DNA of 64,000 nt, taken from NCBI GenBank assembly GCA_003218375.1, contig QHNH01000010.1:24597-88596 (forward strand), written 5' to 3'. The position numbers were made by a program, and so were the translations under genes. Of this stretch, positions 2,275-45,221 are shown in pieces. Every line of letters starts with the position of its first letter. Position 1 is the first letter of the stretch. The notes below the pieces were generated by a model. The model made no database searches and was not told the DNA's origin. It worked only from the letters and a program-made list of their open reading frames with translations. The DNA is from Verrucomicrobiota bacterium. Lineage in GTDB: Bacteria > Verrucomicrobiota > Verrucomicrobiia > Chthoniobacterales > UBA10450.

Positions 2275-3234
2275 ATGAAATCAATTCACCACCTGATAAT
2301 CACCTTGAGCCTGGTCTTCGCCGGATCCGCGGGGGCGGAGACGGTGGTGCGGGTAGGCCACTTTCCAAACATCACTCATGCCCAGGGCTTGATAGCCCAT
2401 AATCTTTCGCGCCAGGGCAAAGGCTGGTTCGAGGAGCGTCTCGGCCCCGGCACCAAGATTGAGTGGTTCGTTTACAGCGCCGGCCCCAGCGCCATGGAAG
2501 CGATCTTCGCTCAATCGATCGATCTCACCTACGTCGGTCCGGGCCCGGCCTTGAATGCCTACACAAAGTCGAACGGCGCTGAAGTGCGTCTCATCGCCGG
2601 CTCCGCTAATGGCGGCGCCGCGCTCGTCGTCCAGCCCGATCAGAACCTGAAGACGGCCGCCGATTTTCGCGGCAAGAAAATCGCGACGCCTCAGCTCGGC
2701 AATACCCAGGACATTTCCTGTCGCGCGTGGTTGATGGCCAGCGGCCTGAAGATCACACAACTCGGCGGAGATGCGCAGGTTCTTCCGACGCAAAACCCGG
2801 ATCAGCTCCAGCTTTTCCAGCAAAAGAGGGTCGATGCGGTTTGGACCGTGGAACCATGGGTTTCGCGGTTGGAGAGAGAGTCCGGCGGAAAAATCCTGGT
2901 CGACGAAAAAGATGTCGCGACCACGGTGCTGGTCTCGAGCGCCAAGTTTCTCCGGGAACAGCGAGAGCTGGCCAAGAAATTTGCCGAAGCGCACGCCGCG
3001 CTCACCGATTGGATGGCGAAGAACCCGGACGAAGCGCAGAAATTGATCAGAGCGGAGTTGCTCGCGGAAACGAGAAGCGACATGGCGCCCGACCTGATTG
3101 CGCAATCGTGGAAGCGCATCGCGTTTACCGCGGAGGCTCCGCGCGCTTCCATCGAGAGCTTCATGCAGAACTCGCTCAAGTCCGGGTTCGTTAAAACCGC
3201 GCCCGATCTCTCGAAGCTTTTCGAAAAACCCTGA
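2275..3234 (+). CDS. ABC transporter substrate-binding protein (NitT/TauT, SsuA-like)
   Basis: Signal peptide MKSIHHLIITLSLVFAGSAGA. NMT1/SsuA-like sequence. First gene of a binding-protein/ATPase/permease operon. Confidence 0.7.
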   Translation: MKSIHHLIITLSLVFAGSAGAETVVRVGHFPNITHAQGLIAHNLSRQGKGWFEERLGPGTKIEWFVYSAGPSAMEAIFAQSIDLTYVGPGPALNAYTKSNGAEVRLIAGSANGGAALVVQPDQNLKTAADFRGKKIATPQLGNTQDISCRAWLMASGLKITQLGGDAQVLPTQNPDQLQLFQQKRVDAVWTVEPWVSRLERESGGKILVDEKDVATTVLVSSAKFLREQRELAKKFAEAHAALTDWMAKNPDEAQKLIRAELLAETRSDMAPDLIAQSWKRIAFTAEAPRASIESFMQNSLKSGFVKTAPDLSKLFEKP

Positions 3235-4037
3235 TGTCGCTGCAGGAGGAACTCCAGGGACTCCCGCCGGCAAAGCTGGCCGTGGAAAGCGTTTCGAAGT
3301 GGTTTCGCACCAGCCGCCAAAGCGTCCACGCCCTCGATAACATCTCGCTGGAGATCGCCGAGGGCGAGTTCGTTTGCCTCGTGGGGCCGAGCGGCTGCGG
3401 CAAATCGACCTTGCTCGATATCATTGCCGGGCTCGAAGTCCCCGACGAAGGGCGGGTGATGGCTGACAACGAGCCGGTCCTGAACCCCGGCCGTCACCGG
3501 CTGGTGATGTTTCAGGAAGCGGCGCTTTTTCCGTGGCTCGACGTTATTGGCAACGTCATGTTTGGATTGAAACTAAAGCCCGGCCTCAGGAACAAGGAGC
3601 GGTTGGAGGTGGCGAAGTTTTTCATCCAGCTCGTCGGGTTGGAAAAATTCTCTCACGCCCACGTCCACGAGCTTTCCGGCGGAATGAAGCAACGCGTCGC
3701 TCTCGCGCGGGCCTTGGCGCCGAACCCGCGGGTGCTGCTCATGGACGAGCCGTTCGCCGCTCTCGATGCTCTGACCCGCGAGCAGCTTTACAGCGATATC
3801 CAGCGCATCTGGCAGAAACGGCGCAAGACGATTTTGTTCGTCACCCACAACGTTCGCGAAGCTGTTTGCCTGGCCGATCGTGTCATCTTGTTCTCGCGAA
3901 ATCCGGGCCAGATTCGCGAGCAATTCGAAATCCCGCTCCCGCGTCCGCGGGACATTAATAGCATCGAGCTGGCCGAACATGCCGGTGAGATTACCCGGGC
4001 CTTGAAAGGTTATGTCACAGGGGAGGTAGCTGAGTAA
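3234..4037 (+). CDS. ABC transporter ATP-binding protein (NitT/TauT family)
   Basis: Walker A GPSGCGKST, signature LSGGMKQRV, Walker B LLMDEPF. Its start overlaps the upstream stop (TGATG). Confidence 0.9.
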   Translation: MSLQEELQGLPPAKLAVESVSKWFRTSRQSVHALDNISLEIAEGEFVCLVGPSGCGKSTLLDIIAGLEVPDEGRVMADNEPVLNPGRHRLVMFQEAALFPWLDVIGNVMFGLKLKPGLRNKERLEVAKFFIQLVGLEKFSHAHVHELSGGMKQRVALARALAPNPRVLLMDEPFAALDALTREQLYSDIQRIWQKRRKTILFVTHNVREAVCLADRVILFSRNPGQIREQFEIPLPRPRDINSIELAEHAGEITRALKGYVTGEVAE

Positions 4038-4914: not shown

Positions 4915-5292
4915 TTGTCCTCGGCTCTCGTGTCACAGGTCCGGGGCGAAGAGATCACTCTCGAGACAGCGCGTCCGGTCGTGATTAAGTCCGCGCCAGA
5001 GGCTGGGGCGGAAGGGGTTGATCCTGGCACGACCCAGATCTCGGTGACGTTTAGCAAACAGATGCAGGGCGGCACCTGGTCGTGGTGTGTCCTAAGCAAA
5101 GAGAGTTATCCCGGGACTTCCGAGGCGCCGAAATACCTCGAGGACAAACGAACCTGTGTGTTGCCGGTGAAACTTCAGCCAGGAAGGACCTATGCCGTTT
5201 GGATTAACTCGGAAAAGTTCTACGAGTTCAAGGACACGAAGGGCCAGCCGGCAGTCCCCTACCTGTTAGTCTTCAGAACGAGAGAGCGGTAA
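4915..5292 (+). CDS. Ig-like (SbsA-type) domain hypothetical protein; N-terminus possibly frameshifted
   Basis: ORF with a TTG start. The motif VIKSAPEAGAEGVDPGTTQISVTFSKQM resembles a bacterial Ig-like domain. A signal-peptide-like ATG ORF lies in another frame at 4884. Confidence 0.5.
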   Translation: MSSALVSQVRGEEITLETARPVVIKSAPEAGAEGVDPGTTQISVTFSKQMQGGTWSWCVLSKESYPGTSEAPKYLEDKRTCVLPVKLQPGRTYAVWINSEKFYEFKDTKGQPAVPYLLVFRTRER

Positions 5293-5327
5293 GGTAGCCG
5301 GTCGGCAACAGTCGCAGCCGCTACCGA

Positions 5328-5780
5328 CTAATCCTTAATGCTGAGCAGCGTCTTGATCTCTTTCCACGCCTTCTTGCGCGAGCCCTCGTAGGCCTGGGCA
5401 TCGTTCTGCTTGCCGCTGGCGATGTAGTCCTTGAGGTCGTTGGCTTCGCGGACAACAAGGTCTAGTACCTCAACCGTGTTCTCAACAAATTGTGCATCAC
5501 TCTTACTAAGCGTATCGGCGTTCACTAACTTCGTCAGCTGTTCCTTCATCCCTTTGGTGACGTTGATATAAGTGTTGACGATGGTCGTGGCCTGCTCGGA
5601 TTTGTAAACCTTGCCGCCATAGGCGTCCGCCAGGGTGCCGACCGCCATGTGGGTGAGCAAAACCGATTGGCCGGTCGTGTAGCCGAGCGTACTCAGCAGA
5701 ACCGTGTCATCCGCGGCGCGGACCGAACCGGTGGCCAGGACGAGCGCGGAAAGGAGAGCGATAAGCAATTTGGAAGTCAT
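5328..5780 (-). CDS. Secreted hypothetical protein
   Basis: Internal Met gives the signal peptide MTSKLLIALLSALVLATGSVRA. Confidence 0.55.
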   Translation of the reverse strand: MTSKLLIALLSALVLATGSVRAADDTVLLSTLGYTTGQSVLLTHMAVGTLADAYGGKVYKSEQATTIVNTYINVTKGMKEQLTKLVNADTLSKSDAQFVENTVEVLDLVVREANDLKDYIASGKQNDAQAYEGSRKKAWKEIKTLLSIKD

Positions 5781-7781: not shown

Positions 7782-7784
7782 TTT

Positions 7785-7865
7785 CTGTAGCCGCTTCGCT
7801 GTGCGAAGCGCCGGAATTTGCGCCCGATGCTGAAACTCACGCCGCCCACAGGGCGGCGGCTACAG
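7785..7865. repeat. REP-like palindromic element, family B (B1)
   Basis: CTGTAGCCGC...GCGGCTACAG outer arms with inner hairpins CGCTTCGC-tgtg-CGAAGCG and CGCCGCCC-aca-GGGCGGCG. Confidence 0.85.
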
Positions 7866-7869
7866 AAGA

Positions 7870-8244: not shown

Positions 8245-8305
8245 AGTTGTTCCTTTGTTTAGGAAGCACGATCTCAGTCCTCCGCGGTCGGGAAGTCAAG
8301 CCTCT

Positions 8306-8375
8306 GGAGACGGCACGCCCTCGTGCCGTGGAGATTGACATTGCTTCCCGAACGGCACGAGGGCGTGCCGTCTCC
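8306..8375. repeat. REPIN-like inverted doublet, family G
   Basis: GGAGACGGCACGCCCTCGTGCCGT ... ACGGCACGAGGGCGTGCCGTCTCC. The arm design parallels family A but the sequence is distinct. Confidence 0.85.
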
Positions 8376-8382
8376 ATCGTTG

Positions 8383-10724: not shown

Positions 10725-10798
10725 GAGTTTTTCGAAGTCCCCACCATACACAACCTGTCCCGTTTCGACAGGGAAAATTGCCGCCGGCCCTGCCTTTT

Positions 10799-10875
10799 CT
10801 GTAGCCGCTTCGCTGTGCGAAGCGTGAGGTTGCGGCATCGCTGATCCCACGCCGCCCACAGGGCGGCGGCTACAG
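10799..10875. repeat. REP-like palindromic element, family B (B3)
   Basis: Near-identical to B1. Lies between the two radical SAM paralogues. Confidence 0.85.
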
Positions 10876-10879
10876 AAGC

Positions 10880-26103: not shown

Positions 26104-26178
26104 TGGCTCCAGAGGTAGGATTCGAACCTACGACCAATCGGTTAACAGCCGACCGCTCTACCACTGAGCTACTCTGGA
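26104..26178 (-). tRNA. tRNA-Asn (GTT)
   Basis: TCCAGAGTAGCTCAGTGGTAGAGCGGTCGGCTGTTAACCGATTGGTCGTAGGTTCGAATCCTACCTCTGGAGCCA folds as a cloverleaf. CCA is encoded. Confidence 0.9.
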
Positions 26179-26241
26179 ATGATGATGGGCGCCGATGAGC
26201 GGCGTACAGTTTGCCCAAGCGAAAGCGCGCGGCAAGTGATT

Positions 26242-26318
26242 TGGTTGCGGGGGCGGGATTTGAACCCGCGGCCTTCAGGTTATGAGCCTGACGAGCTACC
26301 AGGCTGCTCCACCCCGCG
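26242..26318 (-). tRNA. Initiator tRNA-fMet (CAT)
   Basis: CGCGGGGTGGAGCAGCCTGGTAGCTCGTCAGGCTCATAACCTGAAGGCCGCGGGTTCAAATCCCGCCCCCGCAACCA has the C1:A72 mismatch typical of initiator tRNA. Confidence 0.9.
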
Positions 26319-28469: not shown

Positions 28470-28544
28470 TGGCAGCGCGTACGGGAATCGAACCCGTCTT
28501 TCGGCCTTGAGAGGGCCATGTCCTAACCGATAGACGAACGCGCC
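28470..28544 (-). tRNA. tRNA-Glu (CTC)
   Basis: GGCGCGTTCGTCTATCGGTTAGGACATGGCCCTCTCAAGGCCGAAAGACGGGTTCGATTCCCGTACGCGCTGCCA. Confidence 0.85.
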
Positions 28545-29516: not shown

Positions 29517-29590
<74 letters not shown>

Positions 29591-29781: not shown

Positions 29782-32700
29782 TCACCGCTCCAGGTTTGGC
29801 CCGAGCCACCTCTCGATGTATTCGATACTGGCGTTTTTTCGCGCGGCGTAATCGCGCACCTGGTCGTCGCCAATTTTTCCGACTCCGAAATACTTCGAAT
29901 CCGGGTGGGAAAAATAGAGACCGCTTACGCTGGCACCCGGATGCATGGCAAACGATTCCGTAAGCGTGATGCGGGTCGTCTTTTCCGCCCCCAGCAAGTC
30001 GAACAGGGTGCGCTTCTCGGTGTGGTCCGGTGAGGCCGGATAGCCGGCGGCCGGGCGGATGCCGCGGTATTTCTCGCGGATCAATTCATCCTGCGAAAGT
30101 TTTTCATCATCGCCAAATCCCCAGGCGATGCGGGCTTCGCGGTGAAGAAACTCAGCGAATGCTTCCGCGAGCCGGTCCGCGAGCGCCTTTGTCAGGATGG
30201 CGTTGTAGTCGTCGTGATCGGCCGCGAACTTCGCCGCCAGTTCGTCCGCCCCGATGCCCGCGGTCACGGCAAAGCCGCCGAGGTAATCGATCGCGTCGGG
30301 CGCGATGTAATCGGCCAGGCAATGATTGAACTGTGCTGTCGGCTTTTTCATTTGCTGGCGCAGAAAATGGAATGTCGCCAGCGGCTCGCGCCGCGTTTCG
30401 TCCGTGTAAATTTCAACGTCGTCACCGATCGCCTTCGCTGGCCAGAAAGCAAAAGTGCCACGAGCAATCAGGAGTTTTTCGGCGCGAATGCGCTGCAGCA
30501 ATTTTTGCGCATCGTCAAAAAGTTCCTGTGCCTGTGTGCCTACGACTGGATCATTGAAGATCGCCGGATACCGCCCCCGCAATTCCCAGGTGTGAAAGAA
30601 CGGCGACCAATCGATGTAAGGGATCAAGTCATCGAGCGTGATGAGTCTCTTCTGGGGAGCGCACGCGCCTCGCGTGCTGGTTTCGGCGCCCCGCCGAAAC
30701 GCATCTTCCTCTGCCAGCAAAGTCCGCGATGGCGAGGCGCCATCGCCGGCACGCGAGGCGCGTGCGCTCCCCAGATCACTTGCATACACGCGCGCGCCCA
30801 AAAACTCCGGCTTCGGCGGCGTATAACTTGTCCAATCAATCGGCGTCCGGTTCGCTCGCGCTTCTTCCAGCGTAATCAGCTTCTTCTCTTTTGACTTCGC
30901 CGCGTGCTCTTCCCGGAGTCGCGCATAGTCATCACGCGTTTGCTTGTCGAAGGCCTCTCTCGATTCGTCGCTCAACAAACTGCTCACTACGCCGACGGCG
31001 CGTGATGCATCCAGGACGTGCACCGTGCTCGCGCGATAATGTTGGGCGATCTTCACGGCGGTATGCGCTCGACTGGTCGTCGCGCCGCCAATCAGCAGCG
31101 GCAGCGAGAAGCCTTCGCGTTCCATCTCCTGCGCCACGTGCACCATTTCATCGAGCGACGGCGTGATGAGTCCGCTCAACCCGATCACATCCGCTTTCCG
31201 TTCCCGTGCCGTCTCCAGAATCTTCGCCGCCGGCACCATCACGCCGAGATCGATCACTTCGTAATTGTTACATTGCAGCACCACGCCCACGATGTTTTTG
31301 CCGATGTCGTGGACGTCGCCTTTCACGGTCGCCATGACAATCCGCGCCTGCGGTTTCGCATCAGCGCGTTTCTCCGCCTCCATGAACGGAAGCAGATAGG
31401 CGACCGCCTTCTTCATCACCCGCGCACTCTTTACCACCTGCGGCAAAAACATTTTGCCCGCGCCGAACAAATCGCCCACGACGCTCATCCCCGCCATGAG
31501 CGGCCCTTCGATCACTTGCAAGGGCCGGCTGAATTTCTGGCGCGCTTCCTCCGTGTCGGCCTCGATGAAATCGACGATGCCCTTCACGAGCGCATGTGAA
31601 AGCCGCTCTTCGACCGGCGCGTGCCGCCACGCCTCTTTTTCGACCGGTGTTTTCTCGCCGCCCTTGACCCGTTCCGCGAATTCGACCAGCCGTTCGGTCG
31701 CATCATCCCGCCGGTTGAGGAGGACATCTTCCACCCGAGTTTTCAGCTCCGGCTCGATCTCTTCGTAAACGGCGAGTTGGCCGGCGTTGACGATCGCCAT
31801 GTCGAGGCCGGCCTGGATGGCGTGAAATAGAAACGCGGCGTGCATCGCCTCGCGGACCGCGTTGTTGCCCCGGAAGGAAAAGGAAATGTTGCTTACCCCG
31901 CCGCTGGTTCGCGCTCCGGGCAGGTTCGTCTTGATCCAACGCACGGACTCGATGAAATCGACCGCGTAGTTGCGATGTTCCTCCAGGCCGGTCGCGACTG
32001 TCAGGATGTTTGGGTCGAATATGATGTCGTTAGGCGAAATGCCCGCGCGCTCAGTCAGGAGTCGATAAGCGCGCGCGCAAACCTCGATCCGCCGCTGGTA
32101 GCTGTCGGCCTGGCCGGTTTCATCGAATGCCATCACGATGACCGCCGCGCCATAACGCCGGACCAGCGCCGCCTGCCGCAGGAATTCCTCTTCGCCGTTT
32201 TTCAGGCTGATCGAGTTCACGACGGCTTTGCCCTGGACGCATTTCAGGCCAGCCTCGATCACGCTCCACTTCGAGCTGTCGATCATCATCGGAATGCGCG
32301 CGATTTCCGGCTCGCTCCCGATCAGGTGCAGAAACTTCGTCATCGACGCTTCGGAATCGATCATCCCTTCGTCCATGTTGACGTCGAGAATGTTCGCCCC
32401 GCCGCTGACCTGCTGGCGTGCCACCGCGAGCGCCGCCTCGAAATCCCCCGCCAGGATCAGTTTCGAAAATTTCGGAGAGCCCGTGATGTTGGTCCGTTCG
32501 CCCACCACCACGAACCCCATTTCCGGCGTGATGTTCAGCGGCTCGAGCCCTGATAATTGTAATGCTCCCGCCTCCGCGCGATCGCTCTTTCCGGGGAGCG
32601 CACGCGCCTCGCGTGCCGTCTTCGGCGCCCCCGCCGAAGACCCCTCCGGTGTCCACAACCAGGGATAATCCTCGCCCTGTTCGACAAGTCCGGCATCCCA

Positions 32701-34260
32701 CGGATTCCCGCAAATATACTCAAACTTTTCCTGCAGGTCCGATTCGGACCGAATCAGACGATCGAACGATTCTTTTTCCCAAAGCGGCCCCGTCGTTTCG
32801 GCCGCCTTATTGATGCGGTGAGCCGTCGATGATTTGATCGCCTGCAGGATCTCGCTCAAGGAGCAGAACAGCGTCGCACCAGCCGAATCTTCACCTTTCA
32901 CCTGCGGCTCAAAGAGCAAGTGAACGTGGTCCGGCATCACGCAGCACACGTACAACTCGTATTGGCCGTGTTCATAGCCATGCAGCACGCTTCGCAAAAC
33001 GATGTCTCTTTCCGCTGGGGCTAATTGACGACGCTCGCGAGTCGAAAAAGTAACTGCGTATTTTGCCCGCGGCCGCTCGAAGTGAGGGAGATGGCGTTTT
33101 GAATACGATACGTCGGCAGAGATTTCGGCGGGGGCGCCGAAATCAGCACGCGAGGCGCGTGCGCTCCCCAGATTGCGTGATTCTACGCGGCGCGGCGGAA
33201 GGTCGCGCACCTTCTCCGCGATCAATCGGATATGATCTGGGGTCGTCCCGCAGCAGCCGCCGACAATGTTCAGCCAGCCGTTCCGCGCCCATCTCTCGAG
33301 TTGCGGGGCAAGGCTTTCCGGCGTCTCGGGAAAACCGGTCGGAGACAACGGATCGGGCAGCCCGGCGTTCGGATACGCGCTTACGTATCGGTTGGTGCCA
33401 TGCGCGAGCTCTTCGATGTACGGCTCCATCTCGCCGGGCCCGAGCGCGCAGTTCAATCCCACCACGAGCGGATCCGCGTGGGCGATCGACGTCAGAAATG
33501 CTTCGACCGTTTGTCCGCTCAGGATTCGCCCGGAGCGATCGGTCACCGTTCCGGAAATGATAAGCGGAACTCTCCGGCCCAATTTTTCGAACAGTTCGGT
33601 AATGGCCGCGATCGCTGCTTTTGCATTCAGGGTGTCGAAAATAGTTTCGACCATCAGCAGATCTACGCCGCCCTCCAGCAAAGCGGCAGCCTGTTCGCTG
33701 TAGCTTTTTCGAATCTGATCGAACGTGACCGCGCGAAAACTGGGATCGTTTACATCGGGAGACAGCGAAGCCGTGACTGGCAATGGGCCGAGCGAACCGC
33801 CGACGAAACGCCGGCGTCCTGTCTCGTTCGAGACCGTGTCCGCCGCATGACGCGCCACGCGGGCCGCGTTGAGATTGATCTCCGCCACCAGGTCGCAATA
33901 CTCCCGGTCGTCCACGACGCGCTGGAAAAACTCGGCGTCTTTGCGTCCGCTGTCCGGCTCGCCCTGAAAAAGAAAGTCATGAAGACCGATGGTCGTGCCG
34001 CTGAAGGTGTTGGTTTCGATGATGTCCGCGCCGGCTTCGAGATAACGCCGGTGGATTTCGTCGATGAGATCGGGTTTCGTGAGGAGCAGGATCTCGAGAC
34101 AGCCCTTGAGGTCTTTTCCTTTCCAATCCTGGAAGCGGTCGCCGCGATAACCGGCTTCGCTGAGTTTGTATTGCTGGACCATCGTCCCCATGGCCCCGTC
34201 GAGCACGACGATGCGCTCGCGCATGAGCGCTTCGAGAGGATGGAGAGTATCGGCCGGCAT
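29782..34260 (-). CDS. metH: Cobalamin-dependent methionine synthase carrying two in-frame palindromic-element insertions
   Basis: [11 protein letters not shown] (Hcy domain), GERTNITGS (pterin domain), [10 protein letters not shown] (DxHxxG, B12 domain), [13 protein letters not shown] and [12 protein letters not shown] (AdoMet domain). 1492 codons versus about 1230 canonical. Confidence 0.9.
30654..30772. repeat. Family A REPIN-like element (A1), in frame within metH
   Basis: GGGGAGCGCACGCGCCTCGCGTGC...GCACGCGAGGCGCGTGCGCTCCCC with two inner hairpins. Confidence 0.9.
32593..33169 (-). mobile_element. Family A element carrying a RAYT (REP-associated Y1/HUH transposase), in frame within metH
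   Basis: Same 24-nt inverted arms as A1. The internal translation has the HUH motif (HVHLL) and [14 protein letters not shown]...YPW. Confidence 0.8.
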
Positions 34261-36171: not shown

Positions 36172-36173
36172 CC

Positions 36174-36267
36174 AGGTAGGGACGCTTTTCCGAAGCGTCC
36201 GTCGAATCTTCACAGGCCGGCACTCACGACGGAAATAGTCGGACGCTTCGGAAAAGCGTCCCTACCT
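36174..36267. repeat. REP-like palindromic element, family C variant (C2)
   Basis: AGGTAGGGACGCTTTTCCGAAGCGTCC...GGACGCTTCGGAAAAGCGTCCCTACCT. Confidence 0.8.
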
Positions 36268-36277
36268 GAAGTGAAAT

Positions 36278-37222: not shown

Positions 37223-38776
37223 ATGCTTACTCGATTCGCATTTCTTCCTCTGTTTTTGGCGCTCGGCCTGGCGAGCTGCAAAAAAATTTCCAGCATTGCC
37301 GCCACGAACCCGACGGATCAAACCAAGACCGCCGCGGCTTCGGCGACACCAAACGCAGCCATCTCGGCAGCGGCCGCCACGCCTTCTGCGCCTCCGGTTA
37401 TCAGCAAACCGGTCGTGGACCAGAACGCCCAGGTCGTCATTTTCGGTTACCACCGTTTCGTGAACAACGTGAAGCACCCCGACACCGAGATCACGCCGGC
37501 CGCTTTCGAAGCGCAGATGCAGGAGCTGAAGAACAAGAACATCAGCGTGATTCCCATGCAGGATTTTCTCGCCTGGCGGCGAGGCGAGAAAGCGATCCCG
37601 GCGAAGAGCGCCATCATCACATTCGACGACGGCTGGAAATCGCAACACGAAGTCGCCTGGCCGATCATGAAAAAATTTAACTATCCGTTCACGCTCTTCA
37701 TTTACACAGAGGGCATAAAGCCGGGGCATTTCAGCGGCGGCGAATCGATGAGCTGGGAGCAGCTCGCGGAGATGCGCGACGCCGGCGTCGATATTCAAGG
37801 GCACACCGCGACCCATTCGGATTTGCGCAAGCCGTACGACAAGGTGGCGAAGAAAAAATTGAACCCACAGGAATACGAGGAGTGGCTCAACAAGGAAATC
37901 GTCGGCTCGAAGCAGATGATCGAGCAGAAGCTCGGCGTAAAGGTGAACTGCTTCGCGGTTCCCTACGGATTTCACAACGACCACATCCGCGATGTGGTGA
38001 TGAAGGCGGGCTATGAAGCAGTCTTCACCGTTTACGGGCAGCCCATCACAATGCACACGCCGCTTAGTTCGGTCGGCCGTTATCTGATGGAGGCGAACAA
38101 ACCGAAGACATTCACCGATGCCGTGGCCGCCATCGCTACGACTGCGGTGGGCCCCTCAGTCGCGGAAGTGGCGCCGTCGAACCTGCAGACCCAGCCGGCG
38201 GACGGCGAGATGATCAAGAACGCGTTGCCGCTGATCAAGGCGAACATCGCGTCGCTCGGGACGATCGATCCCGGCTCCGTCGAGATGCGGGTTAGCGGCC
38301 TCGGCAAGGTCGATGCCAGTTTCGATCCCAAGAGCAACACGGTGGCGTATCAGGTCACGCAGCGACTCAAGGACAAGACCTGCACGGTCATTGTGTCCGA
38401 TGCCGTCCGTCGCGGCGACGAGCGCGCCGACCGTAGCCCCAACTGCGGCGAAGCCGAAGAAAAAGAAAAAGTAAGCTGCGATCATGATTTCTCTGGGGAG
38501 CGCACGCGCCTCGCGTGCTGGCGATCGCGCCCTCGCGATCGCGGACTTTTTCGGTTTCGAAGCCGGAACTCAAAGCACAAGATTGTTTCGGCGAGGCGCC
38601 GAAACCAGCACGCGAGGCGCGTGCACTCCCCGGATTTAGAGCACCATGTTTTCGCAGCTCGGCGACAAGCTTCAGGACATCTTCAAGGACCTTCGCGGTC
38701 ACGGGACGATCAGCGAAGCGAACATCAACGACGCGTTGCGCCAGGTGCGCCTCGCGTTGCTCGAAGCCGACGTTGA
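37223..38776 (+). CDS. Polysaccharide deacetylase (NodB-type) lipoprotein; 3' end doubtful
   Basis: Lipobox LGLASC and the ITFDDGW motif. The ORF runs through repeat A3 and 130 nt into ffh, which suggests a late frameshift. Confidence 0.7.
   Translation: MLTRFAFLPLFLALGLASCKKISSIAATNPTDQTKTAAASATPNAAISAAAATPSAPPVISKPVVDQNAQVVIFGYHRFVNNVKHPDTEITPAAFEAQMQELKNKNISVIPMQDFLAWRRGEKAIPAKSAIITFDDGWKSQHEVAWPIMKKFNYPFTLFIYTEGIKPGHFSGGESMSWEQLAEMRDAGVDIQGHTATHSDLRKPYDKVAKKKLNPQEYEEWLNKEIVGSKQMIEQKLGVKVNCFAVPYGFHNDHIRDVVMKAGYEAVFTVYGQPITMHTPLSSVGRYLMEANKPKTFTDAVAAIATTAVGPSVAEVAPSNLQTQPADGEMIKNALPLIKANIASLGTIDPGSVEMRVSGLGKVDASFDPKSNTVAYQVTQRLKDKTCTVIVSDAVRRGDERADRSPNCGEAEEKEKVSCDHDFSGERTRLACWRSRPRDRGLFRFRSRNSKHKIVSARRRNQHARRVHSPDLEHHVFAARRQASGHLQGPSRSRDDQRSEHQRRVAPGAPRVARSRR
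38495..38631. repeat. Family A REPIN-like element (A3)
   Basis: Same 24-nt arms as A1 (one mismatch). Inner hairpins GGCGATCGCG-ccc-TCGCGATCGC and GTTTCGGCG-agg-CGCCGAAAC. Confidence 0.9.
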
Positions 38777-40290: not shown

Positions 40291-40299
40291 TTTCTTCCC

Positions 40300-40379
40300 G
40301 GAGGGACGTGCTTCTGCACGTCCCATTCTGTTTGCGATGGCCGCGAAGAGAAATCGGACGTGCAGAAGCACGTCCCTCC
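40300..40379. repeat. REP-like palindromic element, family C (C3)
   Basis: GGAGGGACGTGCTTCTGCACGTCCC...GGACGTGCAGAAGCACGTCCCTCC. Confidence 0.85.
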
Positions 40380-40428
40380 GTTTGAAAGACTCTTCAAGTC
40401 CTTGCGCTCAGAGCGTCGCTCTAACCAA

Positions 40429-41064
40429 ATGAAGCGATTCTTTCTCCTGATCTCTTTCGCCGCGCTCGCGGTTCCCGCATTCGCTCAAACCGTTTGGGTG
40501 AAGGACGGCAACATCCAGTTCACCGACAAAGCCGGACAAACGACGGCACTCACCTCGAGCGGCCGCGATTCCGGGCCCGTCCTAGCTCCCGACGGCAAAT
40601 GGGTCGCCTTCGTGCGCAAAGTGGATGGCAAGAAAATCGCCACGGGCTCCGATGAAGTGGATCCGACCGAGCTCTGGCAGGTCCGCACCGACCGCAAGGA
40701 AGCGAGCCTGCTTATCAAATGTCGCGCCTCGGAAAAACCGGAGTCTGTGATCGCCGGGTTCGAGAACCTGCAATTCTCCTCGAATGGGAAGCTGCTTTAT
40801 TTCGTGACGCCGGCGTGGGCCACTTCGGGTGCCGTGCACGTAGTCGATACCACGAACAGAAAGGAACGATACCTTTTTCCTGGCAACGACCTGAAGATCG
40901 TTGCTTCGGGCGAATACAAGGATTGTCTTCTCGTCCAGCAACACAAGTATTTCGTCGGTGGCGGTTCCTACGATTGGTATTGGCTCCTGCGCGCTGATGG
41001 GAAGGAAGTCGGCCCGGTCGGCGAGGACACGGAGACTTTTGCGGCGACCTACGGCAAGGAGTAG
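40429..41064 (+). CDS. Secreted hypothetical protein (TolB-like beta-propeller flavour)
   Basis: Signal peptide MKRFFLLISFAALAVPAFA. Contains SGRDSGPVLAPDGKWVAFV. Confidence 0.55.
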   Translation: MKRFFLLISFAALAVPAFAQTVWVKDGNIQFTDKAGQTTALTSSGRDSGPVLAPDGKWVAFVRKVDGKKIATGSDEVDPTELWQVRTDRKEASLLIKCRASEKPESVIAGFENLQFSSNGKLLYFVTPAWATSGAVHVVDTTNRKERYLFPGNDLKIVASGEYKDCLLVQQHKYFVGGGSYDWYWLLRADGKEVGPVGEDTETFAATYGKE

Positions 41065-41168
41065 GAACACAGACTTGCAGTCTGTGCGGCCAGCGGGCTT
41101 GCAGCCCGCTGAATCTTTGGCAGCGGATCAGATATCCGCTGGCCGCACAGGCTAAAAGCCTGTGTTCC
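41064..41168. repeat. Four-hairpin palindromic element, family D (D2)
   Basis: GGAACACAGACTTGCAGTCTGTGCGGCCAGCGGGCTTGCAGCCCGCTG...CAGCGGATCAGATATCCGCTGGCCGCACAGGCTAAAAGCCTGTGTTCC. It starts on the last base of the upstream TAG. Confidence 0.9.
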
Positions 41169-41216
41169 TTTCAGCAGACTTGCGGCCTCCGCATAAGATC
41201 GGTATTTTCGCACGTC

Positions 41217-42203: not shown

Positions 42204-42328
42204 GGGGAGCGCACGCGCCCTCGCGTGCTGGCGATGGCGCCCTCGCCATCGCGAACTTCATACTCGGGAAGAAAAGATTGTTTCGGCGAGGGCGCCCAAA
42301 CCAGCACGCGAGGGCGCGTGCGCTCCCC
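42204..42328. repeat. Family A REPIN-like element (A4)
   Basis: Arms GGGGAGCGCACGCGCCCTCGCGTGC / GCACGCGAGGGCGCGTGCGCTCCCC. Fills the gap between the convergent trmD and ketosynthase genes. Confidence 0.9.
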
Positions 42329-44420: not shown

Positions 44421-45221
44421 CTAGCGGCGGCGATGCTTGATCCGGTAAGTCAGGAAACATTCCTCACCTACGGTTCGCATTTCGGTGAGGGTGCAGCGAA
44501 CGCTACGTGGCAGGAAATCTTTGCTCAGGCCGGTCAGGGTGGGCGCAGTCGCGCCGCCGAAGAGGTAGGGCGCGATGGTGAGGTTGAGTTGATCGACCAA
44601 ATCGTGTTCGAGCAGGGCGCGGAAAAGAGTGGCGCCTCCTTCGCAGGCGACGGTGCGAACGCCGTAATCGCGCCGCAGTTGTTGCAGCATCCAGGCGAGA
44701 TCGACCGAGCGGGCATCACTCAGATGCAAGGTGGCTTTCTTCCGCAACGCGTCCTGGTAGCGCTTCGGCATTCGGACGGTGGAGAAAATTACGATCGGCG
44801 AGATATCGGTCTGGAAGATTTTCAGCGAAGGGTCGATGCGGCCTTCGTTTGAGACGATCACACGCAACGGATACGGCGTCTGGCCGCGAGCGATTCGCGC
44901 CTCGCGCATCTTCGGGTCGGGCAACCCGAGGCGGACGTTGTCGTGCTTCAACGTGCTGTGGCCAATCAGGACCGCGTCCCCCAGCGCGCGCTGCCGAAAC
45001 AAATGCGTTTTGTCTTCGCGCGAAGTGAAATCGACCGGTGTGAAATTCTTTGTGGTGATCTTGCCGTCCACCGTCATTGCGAAGGTGACGGCGACGAATG
45101 GACGTTTCGGAGGGACGTGCTTCCGCACGTCCTTGTTGTGACGAGGCGCTCTGAAAGATTTGGGACGTGCGGAAGCACGTCCCTCCGAACGAGGCTTATT
45201 CCTCCTGCTCGCTGATTTCAT
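44421..45221 (-). CDS. RibD C-terminal-domain / dihydrofolate reductase-like reductase (start uncertain)
   Basis: FVAVTFAMTVDGKIT...VACEGGATLFRALL. The annotated N-terminus runs through repeat C4. Confidence 0.65.
   Translation of the reverse strand: MKSASRRNKPRSEGRASARPKSFRAPRHNKDVRKHVPPKRPFVAVTFAMTVDGKITTKNFTPVDFTSREDKTHLFRQRALGDAVLIGHSTLKHDNVRLGLPDPKMREARIARGQTPYPLRVIVSNEGRIDPSLKIFQTDISPIVIFSTVRMPKRYQDALRKKATLHLSDARSVDLAWMLQQLRRDYGVRTVACEGGATLFRALLEHDLVDQLNLTIAPYLFGGATAPTLTGLSKDFLPRSVRCTLTEMRTVGEECFLTYRIKHRRR
45109..45186. repeat. REP-like palindromic element, family C (C4)
   Basis: GGAGGGACGTGCTTCCGCACGTCC...GGGACGTGCGGAAGCACGTCCCTCC. Confidence 0.85.

Follow-up and report, generated by a model that had tools for sequence, protein, structure and literature searches.

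A candidate REPIN-type palindrome in frame in the methionine synthase gene metH of a Verrucomicrobiota bacterium

The cobalamin-dependent methionine synthase gene (metH) of a Verrucomicrobiota bacterium, analyzed here within a 64-kb stretch of contig QHNH01000010.1 (the window), carries in its reading frame a 119-bp palindrome at positions 30654-30772. Comparison with orthologues identifies this segment as mobile DNA, not a native linker, and the site it holds has been occupied repeatedly. The account that we regard as very probable is that a REPIN, a doublet of repetitive extragenic palindromic (REP) units, belonging to the family of a REP-associated tyrosine transposase (RAYT) inserted at a permissive surface turn of the enzyme and has been tolerated there as a frame-keeping loop. 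The incoming copy, consisting of two inverted REP units with inner hairpins and a variable centre and served by the RAYT, would have landed without target-site duplication where the MetH activation domain begins, in a tight turn that joins two short beta-strands, and would have added a net length divisible by three, leaving the metH frame unbroken through the insert. Copies that broke the frame were presumably lost from metH by selection, and the permissiveness of the turn would combine with an attraction of further insertions to REP sequences already resident there. Forces acting at the DNA level would then keep the arms of the element near the family consensus until the insert eventually decays to a short footprint.

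The palindrome and its position in MetH

The element, a non-autonomous member of what is called here family A, has its limits set by two 24-nt arms of the sequence GGGGAGCGCACGCGCCTCGCGTGC, which form an exact inverted pair with 71 nt between them. In the left arm (30654-30677, plus strand), a REP unit, GGGGAGC is followed by the 7-bp hairpin GCACGCG-cct-CGCGTGC, and the right arm (30749-30772, minus strand) is its exact reverse complement. Two inner hairpins, GTTTCGGCG-ccc-CGCCGAAAC at 30680-30700 and GCGATGGCG-agg-CGCCATCGC at 30726-30746, enclose a variable centre (30701-30725) that encodes roughly RTLLAEEDA. Arms and inner hairpins had been reported in a preliminary description of this DNA, and both were recovered exactly. 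Inverted REP units, a short spacer and the capacity to form one long hairpin are thus all present, as expected of a REPIN. Six arm matches were found in the window against none expected (100 shuffles), and the folding energy of the element is far below that of shuffled sequence both as single-stranded DNA (-59.7 kcal/mol, z = -10.1) and as coding-sense mRNA (-104 kcal/mol, z = -9.8).

The inverted repeat continues for a further 3 nt on each side as TCY/RGA, kept in 90-112 of 118 flanks of related copies, and the span of the element is therefore better given as 30651-30775. Past TCY/RGA, which belongs to the inverted repeat, no target motif is conserved outside the arms, and a search of 59 elements for flanking direct repeats of 2-5 nt at boundary offsets of 0-4 yielded none above expectation. 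[quoted passage not shown] Arm positions 1-7 are conserved at 96-100% among family A arms, as judged from loci that were fetched by exact arm match. No GTAG tag (or GYAG/GTRG) stands beside the stem in the family A arm, where GGGGAGC precedes GCACGCG.

The host gene is an intact open reading frame (ORF) of 1492 codons on the minus strand (34260-29782), in which Pfam recognizes all five MetH domains with strong scores and, in addition, a Y1 transposase domain at residues 399-497. The palindrome is read in frame on the minus strand as MetH residues ~1163-1203; the ORF translation agrees with the 40 residues first attributed to it, which are rich in Gly, Ser, Ala, and Arg. Its 119 bp are not divisible by three, the first base falling on codon position 3 and the last on codon position 1, and the net insertion in metH amounts to 40-41 codons (120-123 nt) depending on the empty allele taken as reference. 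It had been pointed out earlier that removal of this insert and of a second, 193-codon insert leaves a protein of near-canonical length (1492 - 40 - 193 = 1259 aa), and orthologues that lack inserts do measure 1247-1267 aa.

As the insert keeps the frame of a conserved enzyme and is distributed among relatives much as a homing element would be, its intron- or intein-like removal after transcription or translation may be considered. We hold such removal to be extremely improbable: the insert has 40 residues against about 130 or more for a splicing domain, its first residues are Gly-Ser-Ala and its last Pro-Gln, with Lys next in MetH, the intein nucleophile and His-Asn features are absent, the structure is a plain hairpin, and an Rfam scan returned only four tRNAs at the gathering score, leaving the element unmatched by any family, introns included. 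The insert is most likely present in the protein as about 40 residues, nothing in the sequence indicating its removal.

The preliminary description placed the insert in the linker between the B12 and S-adenosylmethionine (AdoMet) activation domains. This holds by Pfam borders, the insertion lying just ahead of the Met_synt_B12 model, but alignment with Escherichia coli MetH (1K7Y, 1MSK), in which 48 window residues stand against two (...RLGVQEV-EA-SIETLRNYIDWTPFF), puts it about 38 residues inside the 897-1227 activation fragment, at a beta-turn between two short strands at the start of the activation domain and not, strictly, in the interdomain linker. Structural modeling, which had been proposed as a check for an extruded loop, gave a partial answer. 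In an AlphaFold model of residues 881-1492 the insert is the least confident stretch (predicted local distance difference test, pLDDT, 27-44) and is without secondary structure between flanking strands, which is weak but consistent support for an extruded, disordered surface loop tolerated by MetH; the model as a whole is poor (mean pLDDT 55, from a shallow alignment).

It may be asked whether metH is itself decaying or inactive though still open, with the inserts as damage. Two large inserts in a single gene would fit such a state, as would the frame breaks seen in metH of related long-read metagenome-assembled genomes (MAGs; loci L088 and L073). We nevertheless consider it very improbable. 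The 1492 codons are uninterrupted and the five Pfam domains strong, the ratio of nonsynonymous to synonymous substitution (omega) is ~0.06 against four relatives, the translation shows GDVHDIG of the B12 motif, the cysteines of the zinc site and RPAAGYPA of the AdoMet site, and the same architecture is kept in many independent assemblies.

A REP-associated transposase in the same gene

The second insert in metH, 1.9 kb upstream of the palindrome, is an autonomous family A element of 577 bp (32593-33169, minus strand; MetH residues ~364-556). Its arms, at 32593-32616 and 33146-33169, are identical to those of the 119-bp element, and the hairpin type of inner hairpin 1 sits directly inside both of them. 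Between the arms lies a transposase read in frame with metH. The protein passes the curated NCBIfam model for a 'REP-associated tyrosine transposase' (NF047646; 90.5 bits, cutoff 80) and aligns with E. coli TnpA-REP (4ER8) such that its HVH and YICGNP are in register with HMH and YIYINP. By the presence of the HUH and catalytic-tyrosine YxxxNP motifs it is thus assigned as a RAYT. The embedded RAYT has no start codon of its own (ATG, GTG, or TTG) ahead of its conserved N-terminus. Purifying selection on the RAYT and its inheritance along with metH are supported by an omega of 0.05-0.15, at a synonymous divergence (dS) close to the host gene's, and the RAYT's occurrence at the upstream metH site is patchy (37 of 121 sequences, scattered over the MetH tree, the remainder holding other palindromes or short sequences). 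The claim that the palindrome is a non-autonomous copy of a transposase-bearing family is borne out by the identical arms, and the sequence identifies the 119-bp element as a probable REPIN-type partner of the RAYT.

About 120 stand-alone RAYT homologues of 179-329 aa were also collected (P0121-P0240). Their starts typically lie 8-20 codons 5' of the left arm and their stops usually a few codons past the right arm, and an N-terminal leader, M..K.DA..F, is common to subsets of them, suggesting fixed orthologous locations. In one related MAG (L088), RAYT elements are present at both metH sites (2799-3373 and 5189-5765) and represent two sister families that are distinguished by paired changes in the arm hairpins (GCACGCG/CGCGTGC versus GCACGCC/GGCGTGC); the metH frame breaks in this locus may be long-read assembly errors or mark a pseudogene.

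Family A has four copies in the window, two of them intergenic. One, of 137 bp (38495-38631), lies between a polysaccharide-deacetylase-like ORF and ffh; the other, a 125-bp variant (42204-42328) between trmD and a fabF-like gene, has the arm loop CCCT instead of CCT, a one-base insertion that caused it to be skipped by the mismatch search. All four fall within 30.6-42.3 kb, no more than 9.5 kb from the RAYT (chance ~0.03 by our calculation), which may indicate local spread. Beyond the window, a scan for exact matches with one genome per species placed the 24-mer at at least 118 loci, nearly all of them in soil MAGs labelled Verrucomicrobiota, Chthoniobacterales, Candidatus Udaeobacter, or Spartobacteria. 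The 58 paired elements in the fetched loci and the window form two size classes, 95-177 bp and 575-580 bp, the latter with the transposase inside, and about 45 of 52 short paired copies in related MAGs lie outside verified genes. The family A arm was also met on contigs labelled 'uncultured Bifidobacterium sp.', 'Acidobacteria', and 'Prosthecobacter sp.' (L049, L084, and L036), which are probably mis-binned; L049 also has a Verrucomicrobia-type metH.

Turnover of elements at one orthologous turn

An alignment of MetH orthologues had been suggested as a check on the insert, and the MetH of the window was accordingly aligned with the 120 MetH proteins nearest to it (72-90% identity, 1229-1692 aa), giving 121 sequences. 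The state of the site was read from the residues downstream of ...RVYxSD up to the next conserved stretch, and compared with a neighbour-joining tree of the MetH protein without the site. The site is empty in 33 sequences, with 3-8 residues such as AGT or GSADKA, and five more retain footprints of 7-10 aa that consist of arm ends alone (GSAGAPH, GSARAPQ, GS..AACAPP). Family A is present in the orientation of the window (A+) in 14, the window included, and in the opposite orientation (A-) in two. Other families account for most of the remainder: family B (GSAGCQPAVAGSLPAT...RLAACAPQ) in 22, family C (GSARLRRAGFGILPKQS...PQACAPQ) in six and the unrelated family D (VIPSEVEG...RSAQDD) in 29, while three sequences hold a complete second RAYT in frame and seven are unclassified. 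On the tree, these states occur at scattered positions. L113, the closest genome found (MetH 90% identical in amino acids), has the same RAYT upstream and a VIPS-type element here. Presence/absence polymorphism, which the preliminary description had proposed to look for, is found among the relatives.

One empty allele has the codons GAT GCG GGA ACA ATC where the window has GAT CTG [GGG...CAG] AAG AGA CTC ATC. The GSADKA allele of P0028 and its relatives (L120:3880-3985) is encoded by GGG AGC GCA GAC AAA GCC; its first nine bases equal the element terminus, and the site may have been occupied long ago, leaving this allele as a footprint.

A native, lineage-specific linker whose likeness to other family A copies is coincidental or compositional would be expected to have homologous residues at the same place in related proteins, and 14 of the 121 sequences (13 orthologues and the window) do have them. 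Such residues prove to be those of a mobile element, and this explanation carries an almost negligible probability. The 33 empty orthologues, together with the several families, both orientations and the footprints, show that no native linker is involved; in E. coli the site has two residues, the 24-nt arms recur identically at three other places in the window and at at least 118 loci elsewhere where chance predicts none, and the pattern of substitution is that of a DNA element and not of a coding segment.

The A+ copies at the site have a uniform length of 40 codons and related centres, and this points to a single old family A insertion that lineages inherited or exchanged, not to many separate hits. 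Elements of the other families, and family A in the opposite orientation, arrived in events of their own. The short footprints look like internal deletions between arms.

The preliminary description argued from the two metH copies for either selection for tolerated positions or a target preference, and that proposal agrees with the finding that both metH sites have been filled repeatedly, by several families and in both orientations. A preference beyond selection, in which the element homes to a motif or to resident REP remnants, is compatible with the permissive-turn account and seems to us possible, if somewhat doubtful. At least five element types in both orientations have entered exactly one turn; some 'empty' alleles bear the element terminus GGGAGCGCA (L120), and the footprints GSARAPQ and GSAGAPH keep arm ends; elements are nested or adjacent in P0025 and P0105; the four family A copies of the window cluster around the RAYT; and REPs are described, in the part of the literature retrieved, as targets of other insertions (PMC1525189). 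Against this, conservation stops at the TCY of the inverted repeat, the cleanest empty allele (L119) is without arm-like sequence, no obvious motif is common to the in-gene sites in uvrA, dnaE, mnmA, and other genes, and selective loss from an essential gene would be enough to leave the surviving copies concentrated in permissive loops.

Conservation of the arms as DNA

To follow the insert at the nucleotide level, metH DNA was compared among loci with family A in the same orientation (L121, L122), in the opposite orientation (L123), with empty sites (L119, L120) and with another family (L113). The metH core shows the profile of a conserved protein, with identities at codon positions 1/2/3 of 0.92/0.94/0.56 and an omega of ~0.06, at a dS of 1.1-1.25 in most pairs and 0.55 against the closest relative, L113. 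The embedded RAYT is similar (0.85/0.92/0.57, omega 0.05-0.15, dS ~1.3). The arms and inner hairpins of the palindrome, by comparison, are conserved at every codon position (0.94-0.97/0.97-1.0/0.84-0.94) with a dS of 0-0.25, against 0.57-0.89 in the adjacent 40 host codons and 1.1-2.0 in the adjacent 100 (one comparison saturated in each case), and the central eight codons stand at 0.25-0.75/0.63-0.88/0.63-0.75, their nonsynonymous divergence (dN) approximating dS in two of three pairs. On these patterns metH and the transposase are conserved as proteins and the arms as DNA, and the centre drifts neutrally. With arms near the family consensus at all codon positions and a neutral centre, it is the DNA element that is conserved, not the peptide. 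Recognition by the RAYT, hairpin structure, or homogenization against other copies could each maintain the arms. Changes within the arm hairpins of 218 arms comprised ten compensated and 20 broken cells, in a set with little variation that is biased by its ascertainment.

Conservation of the arms in a coding gene far in excess of the neutral expectation, a very stable mRNA hairpin, and the persistence of 40-codon A+ copies where metH synonymous sites are saturated might also be taken to mean that the insert has been co-opted, the extra loop tuning the domain movements of MetH or the mRNA hairpin regulating translation or mRNA stability. Co-option nevertheless appears improbable, as the insert is patchy, with close relatives empty or carrying unrelated elements, dN approximates dS in the centre, and the same elements are found in unrelated proteins. 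The arms of intergenic copies are equally conserved, which makes the conservation a property of the family and not of the metH locus.

Several considerations weigh against reading the palindrome as a RAYT-mobilized REPIN tolerated in MetH. Translation of the insert, activity of the enzyme and mobility of the element are deduced from sequence, and passage of the ribosome through an mRNA hairpin of -104 kcal/mol is an assumption. Mobilization of family A by this particular RAYT is argued from their association and from the behavior of other RAYTs. The boundaries of the insertions cannot be fixed exactly, the 119, 125, and 577 bp all being non-multiples of three, and they are blurred further by linker residues beside the insert that vary between alleles. 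The low dS of the arms could stem from recent re-insertion or gene conversion and not from selection at this site. Cross-genome conservation of the arms is subject to ascertainment bias from retrieval by exact arm match, the quality of the AlphaFold model leaves the disordered loop weakly supported, and the source genome is seen through 64 kb, which bounds both the copy number of the family and the count of any second methionine synthase.

Reading phase of copies within genes

A survey of in-gene copies covered short paired elements and single arms in the fetched loci, with long ORFs checked by Pfam. Hosts confirmed in this way are metH (two sites), uvrA (three), uvrD, dnaE, mnmA, an Eco57I/MmeI-type methylase, and thiC, and a further copy lies in an ATP-dependent DNA ligase ORF, possibly 5' of the true start. 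The uvrA copies (L117:678-793, 1887-1910, 3768-3880; L040:166-281, 1393-1546; L070:1358-1473; L048:1118; L003:525) represent three orthologous sites found in up to four MAGs. The others, in dnaE, uvrD, mnmA, the methylase, thiC, and the ligase ORF, are located at L050:5833, L068:3471-3615, L052:4440-4579, L093:5657 and L106:759, L101:6842-6977, and L044:5925. Long ORFs that span elements in other phases (L085, L036, L024, L028, L029) have no Pfam support and were treated as spurious.

A genome-wide count of in-gene copies by frame had been named as a test, with random phases counting against selection or target preference. Among the fetched loci the distribution is non-random, which strengthens the earlier case: the phase that reads L/P-GSARASR is entered at nine of the 11 independent in-gene sites (both in metH, all three in uvrA, and those in uvrD, dnaE, mnmA, and the methylase), with a binomial P of ~1.4e-3 against a one-in-three expectation by our calculation. 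The exceptions are thiC, where the first arm is read in another phase, and the ligase. The RAYT ORF reads its own left arm in the same phase, in metH-embedded and stand-alone copies alike. The arms may thus long have been coding in the GSARASR phase, and read-through in that phase would hence be harmless to hosts.

That both metH copies keep the frame and contain no stops had been offered as evidence of selection or of a target preference. The frame is indeed intact; the absence of stops was rejected as evidence, the 119-bp element being open in all six frames (typical related copies in four to six) and high GC providing a sufficient explanation. The accompanying caveat that high GC makes stop-free frames common proved apt, with copies that lie outside verified genes being stop-free in 77% of their phase-2 readings. 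Lengths with residues 2/1/0 modulo three number 22/13/10 outside genes and 6/1/0 in genes, a suggestive trend drawn from small numbers with loose boundaries, and the hydrophobicity of the centre shows no useful difference between in-gene and intergenic copies (0.33 versus 0.27).

A more far-reaching possibility, to which we give well under even odds, is that family A has adapted, as a mobile element, to translation, its arms doubling as codons for the N- and C-terminal tails of the RAYT. If so, the RAYT could do without a start codon and be produced as an inner part of a host protein, here MetH, and short derivatives could colonize surface turns of large housekeeping enzymes in the RAYT phase as still active, sequence-conserved REPIN members, not scars. 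The turns and linkers of MetH would then be long-term safe harbours with continual turnover, an intein-like outcome reached without splicing.

Relation to known in-frame repeats

The element belongs to an already known class of in-frame REP/REPIN insertions. As described in the portions of the REPIN-RAYT literature consulted (Bertels & Rainey, 2011, PMC3116915; Nunvar, 2010, PMC2817692; Ton-Hoang, 2012, PMC3333891), it shares with that system the inverted REP hairpin units and short spacer, the same REPs flanking a Y1/HUH transposase that passes a curated RAYT model, what appear to be many short copies per transposase, the lack of target duplication, and long persistence in one clade. It departs from it in having GGGGAGC ahead of the hairpin in place of a GTAG tag and a second, inner hairpin in each half. 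In addition, the RAYT ORF of family A runs through both of its own arms, here inside a host gene and without its own start, and a sizeable minority of copies are intragenic and in frame.

According to Di Nocera et al. (2013; PMC3733652), intragenic REP dimers that encode tens of residues in frame in known proteins are most numerous in Opitutus terrae, itself a verrucomicrobium. Repair and replication genes are enriched among the hosts, which include both uvrA genes, each with a double insertion, as well as a DNA ligase, dnaE2, and an N6 methylase; in the passages retrieved, the inserts are regarded as possibly neutral because of their position in flexible linkers or loops. Family A falls in the same classes of host, its uvrA copies recalling those of O. 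terrae, but represents another REP family in another clade (Chthoniobacterales-type MAGs). It would extend translated REP/REPIN insertions to a large uncultured group of soil Verrucomicrobiota. A term search of the supplementary tables of PMC3733652 gave no 'methionine synthase' or metH entry, and a limited literature search found nothing on Udaeobacter or methionine synthase in this context. Neither multi-family turnover at one orthologous MetH turn, nor the contrast between DNA and protein conservation, nor a phase bias tied to the RAYT frame, nor a RAYT without a start codon in a housekeeping enzyme appears in the retrieved passages of the cited papers.

Rickettsia palindromic elements are palindromes of ~100-150 bp that lie in frame in housekeeping genes, are translated, and are regarded as compatible with the fold of the host protein (Ogata et al., 2000/2002, as summarized in PMC10969869 and PMC3733652). 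Their likeness to family A is functional, that of an in-frame palindrome; by description they are an unrelated family in AT-rich obligate intracellular hosts and are not known to have a transposase, whereas the palindrome described here is linked to an identifiable transposase in the same gene. Palindrome-associated elements derived from IS200/IS605 and MITEs are likewise small, non-autonomous and mobilized in trans, with hairpin ends. The ends of IS200/IS605 are asymmetric and family A is symmetric, and the classical MITE of a DDE transposon combines terminal inverted repeats with target-site duplications, of which family A has the repeats alone.

The orthologue series reads as a set of insertion stages, from empty sites through full elements in either orientation and replacement by other families to footprints, and illustrates how a conserved enzyme can acquire new loop sequence from mobile DNA. 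Arms conserved as DNA around a neutrally drifting centre provide a simple signature by which such inserts may be separated from genuine linker evolution. For annotation it follows that segments of the type 'GSARASR...ACAPQ' or 'VIPSEVE...RSAQDD' in the proteins of these bacteria should be treated as read-through of mobile elements and not as domains.

Neighbouring genes and other repeats in the window

The gene order deacetylase, amidase, MFS transporter, metH, DUF2062, DUF72 is kept in relatives, and four tRNA genes lie directly downstream of metH on the minus strand (26107-26318, 28473-28544, 29517-29590). A promoter and terminator scan of metH produced nothing exceeding the expectation from shuffled sequence.

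The source genome is rich in palindromic repeats of several families. At least seven more REPIN-like inverted doublets are present in the window, representing four or five other families, some of them GTAG-tagged; they include 36173-36268, the pair 40299-40380 and 45106-45189, 41063-41169, 8305-8376, and the pair 7783-7867 and 10797-10877.

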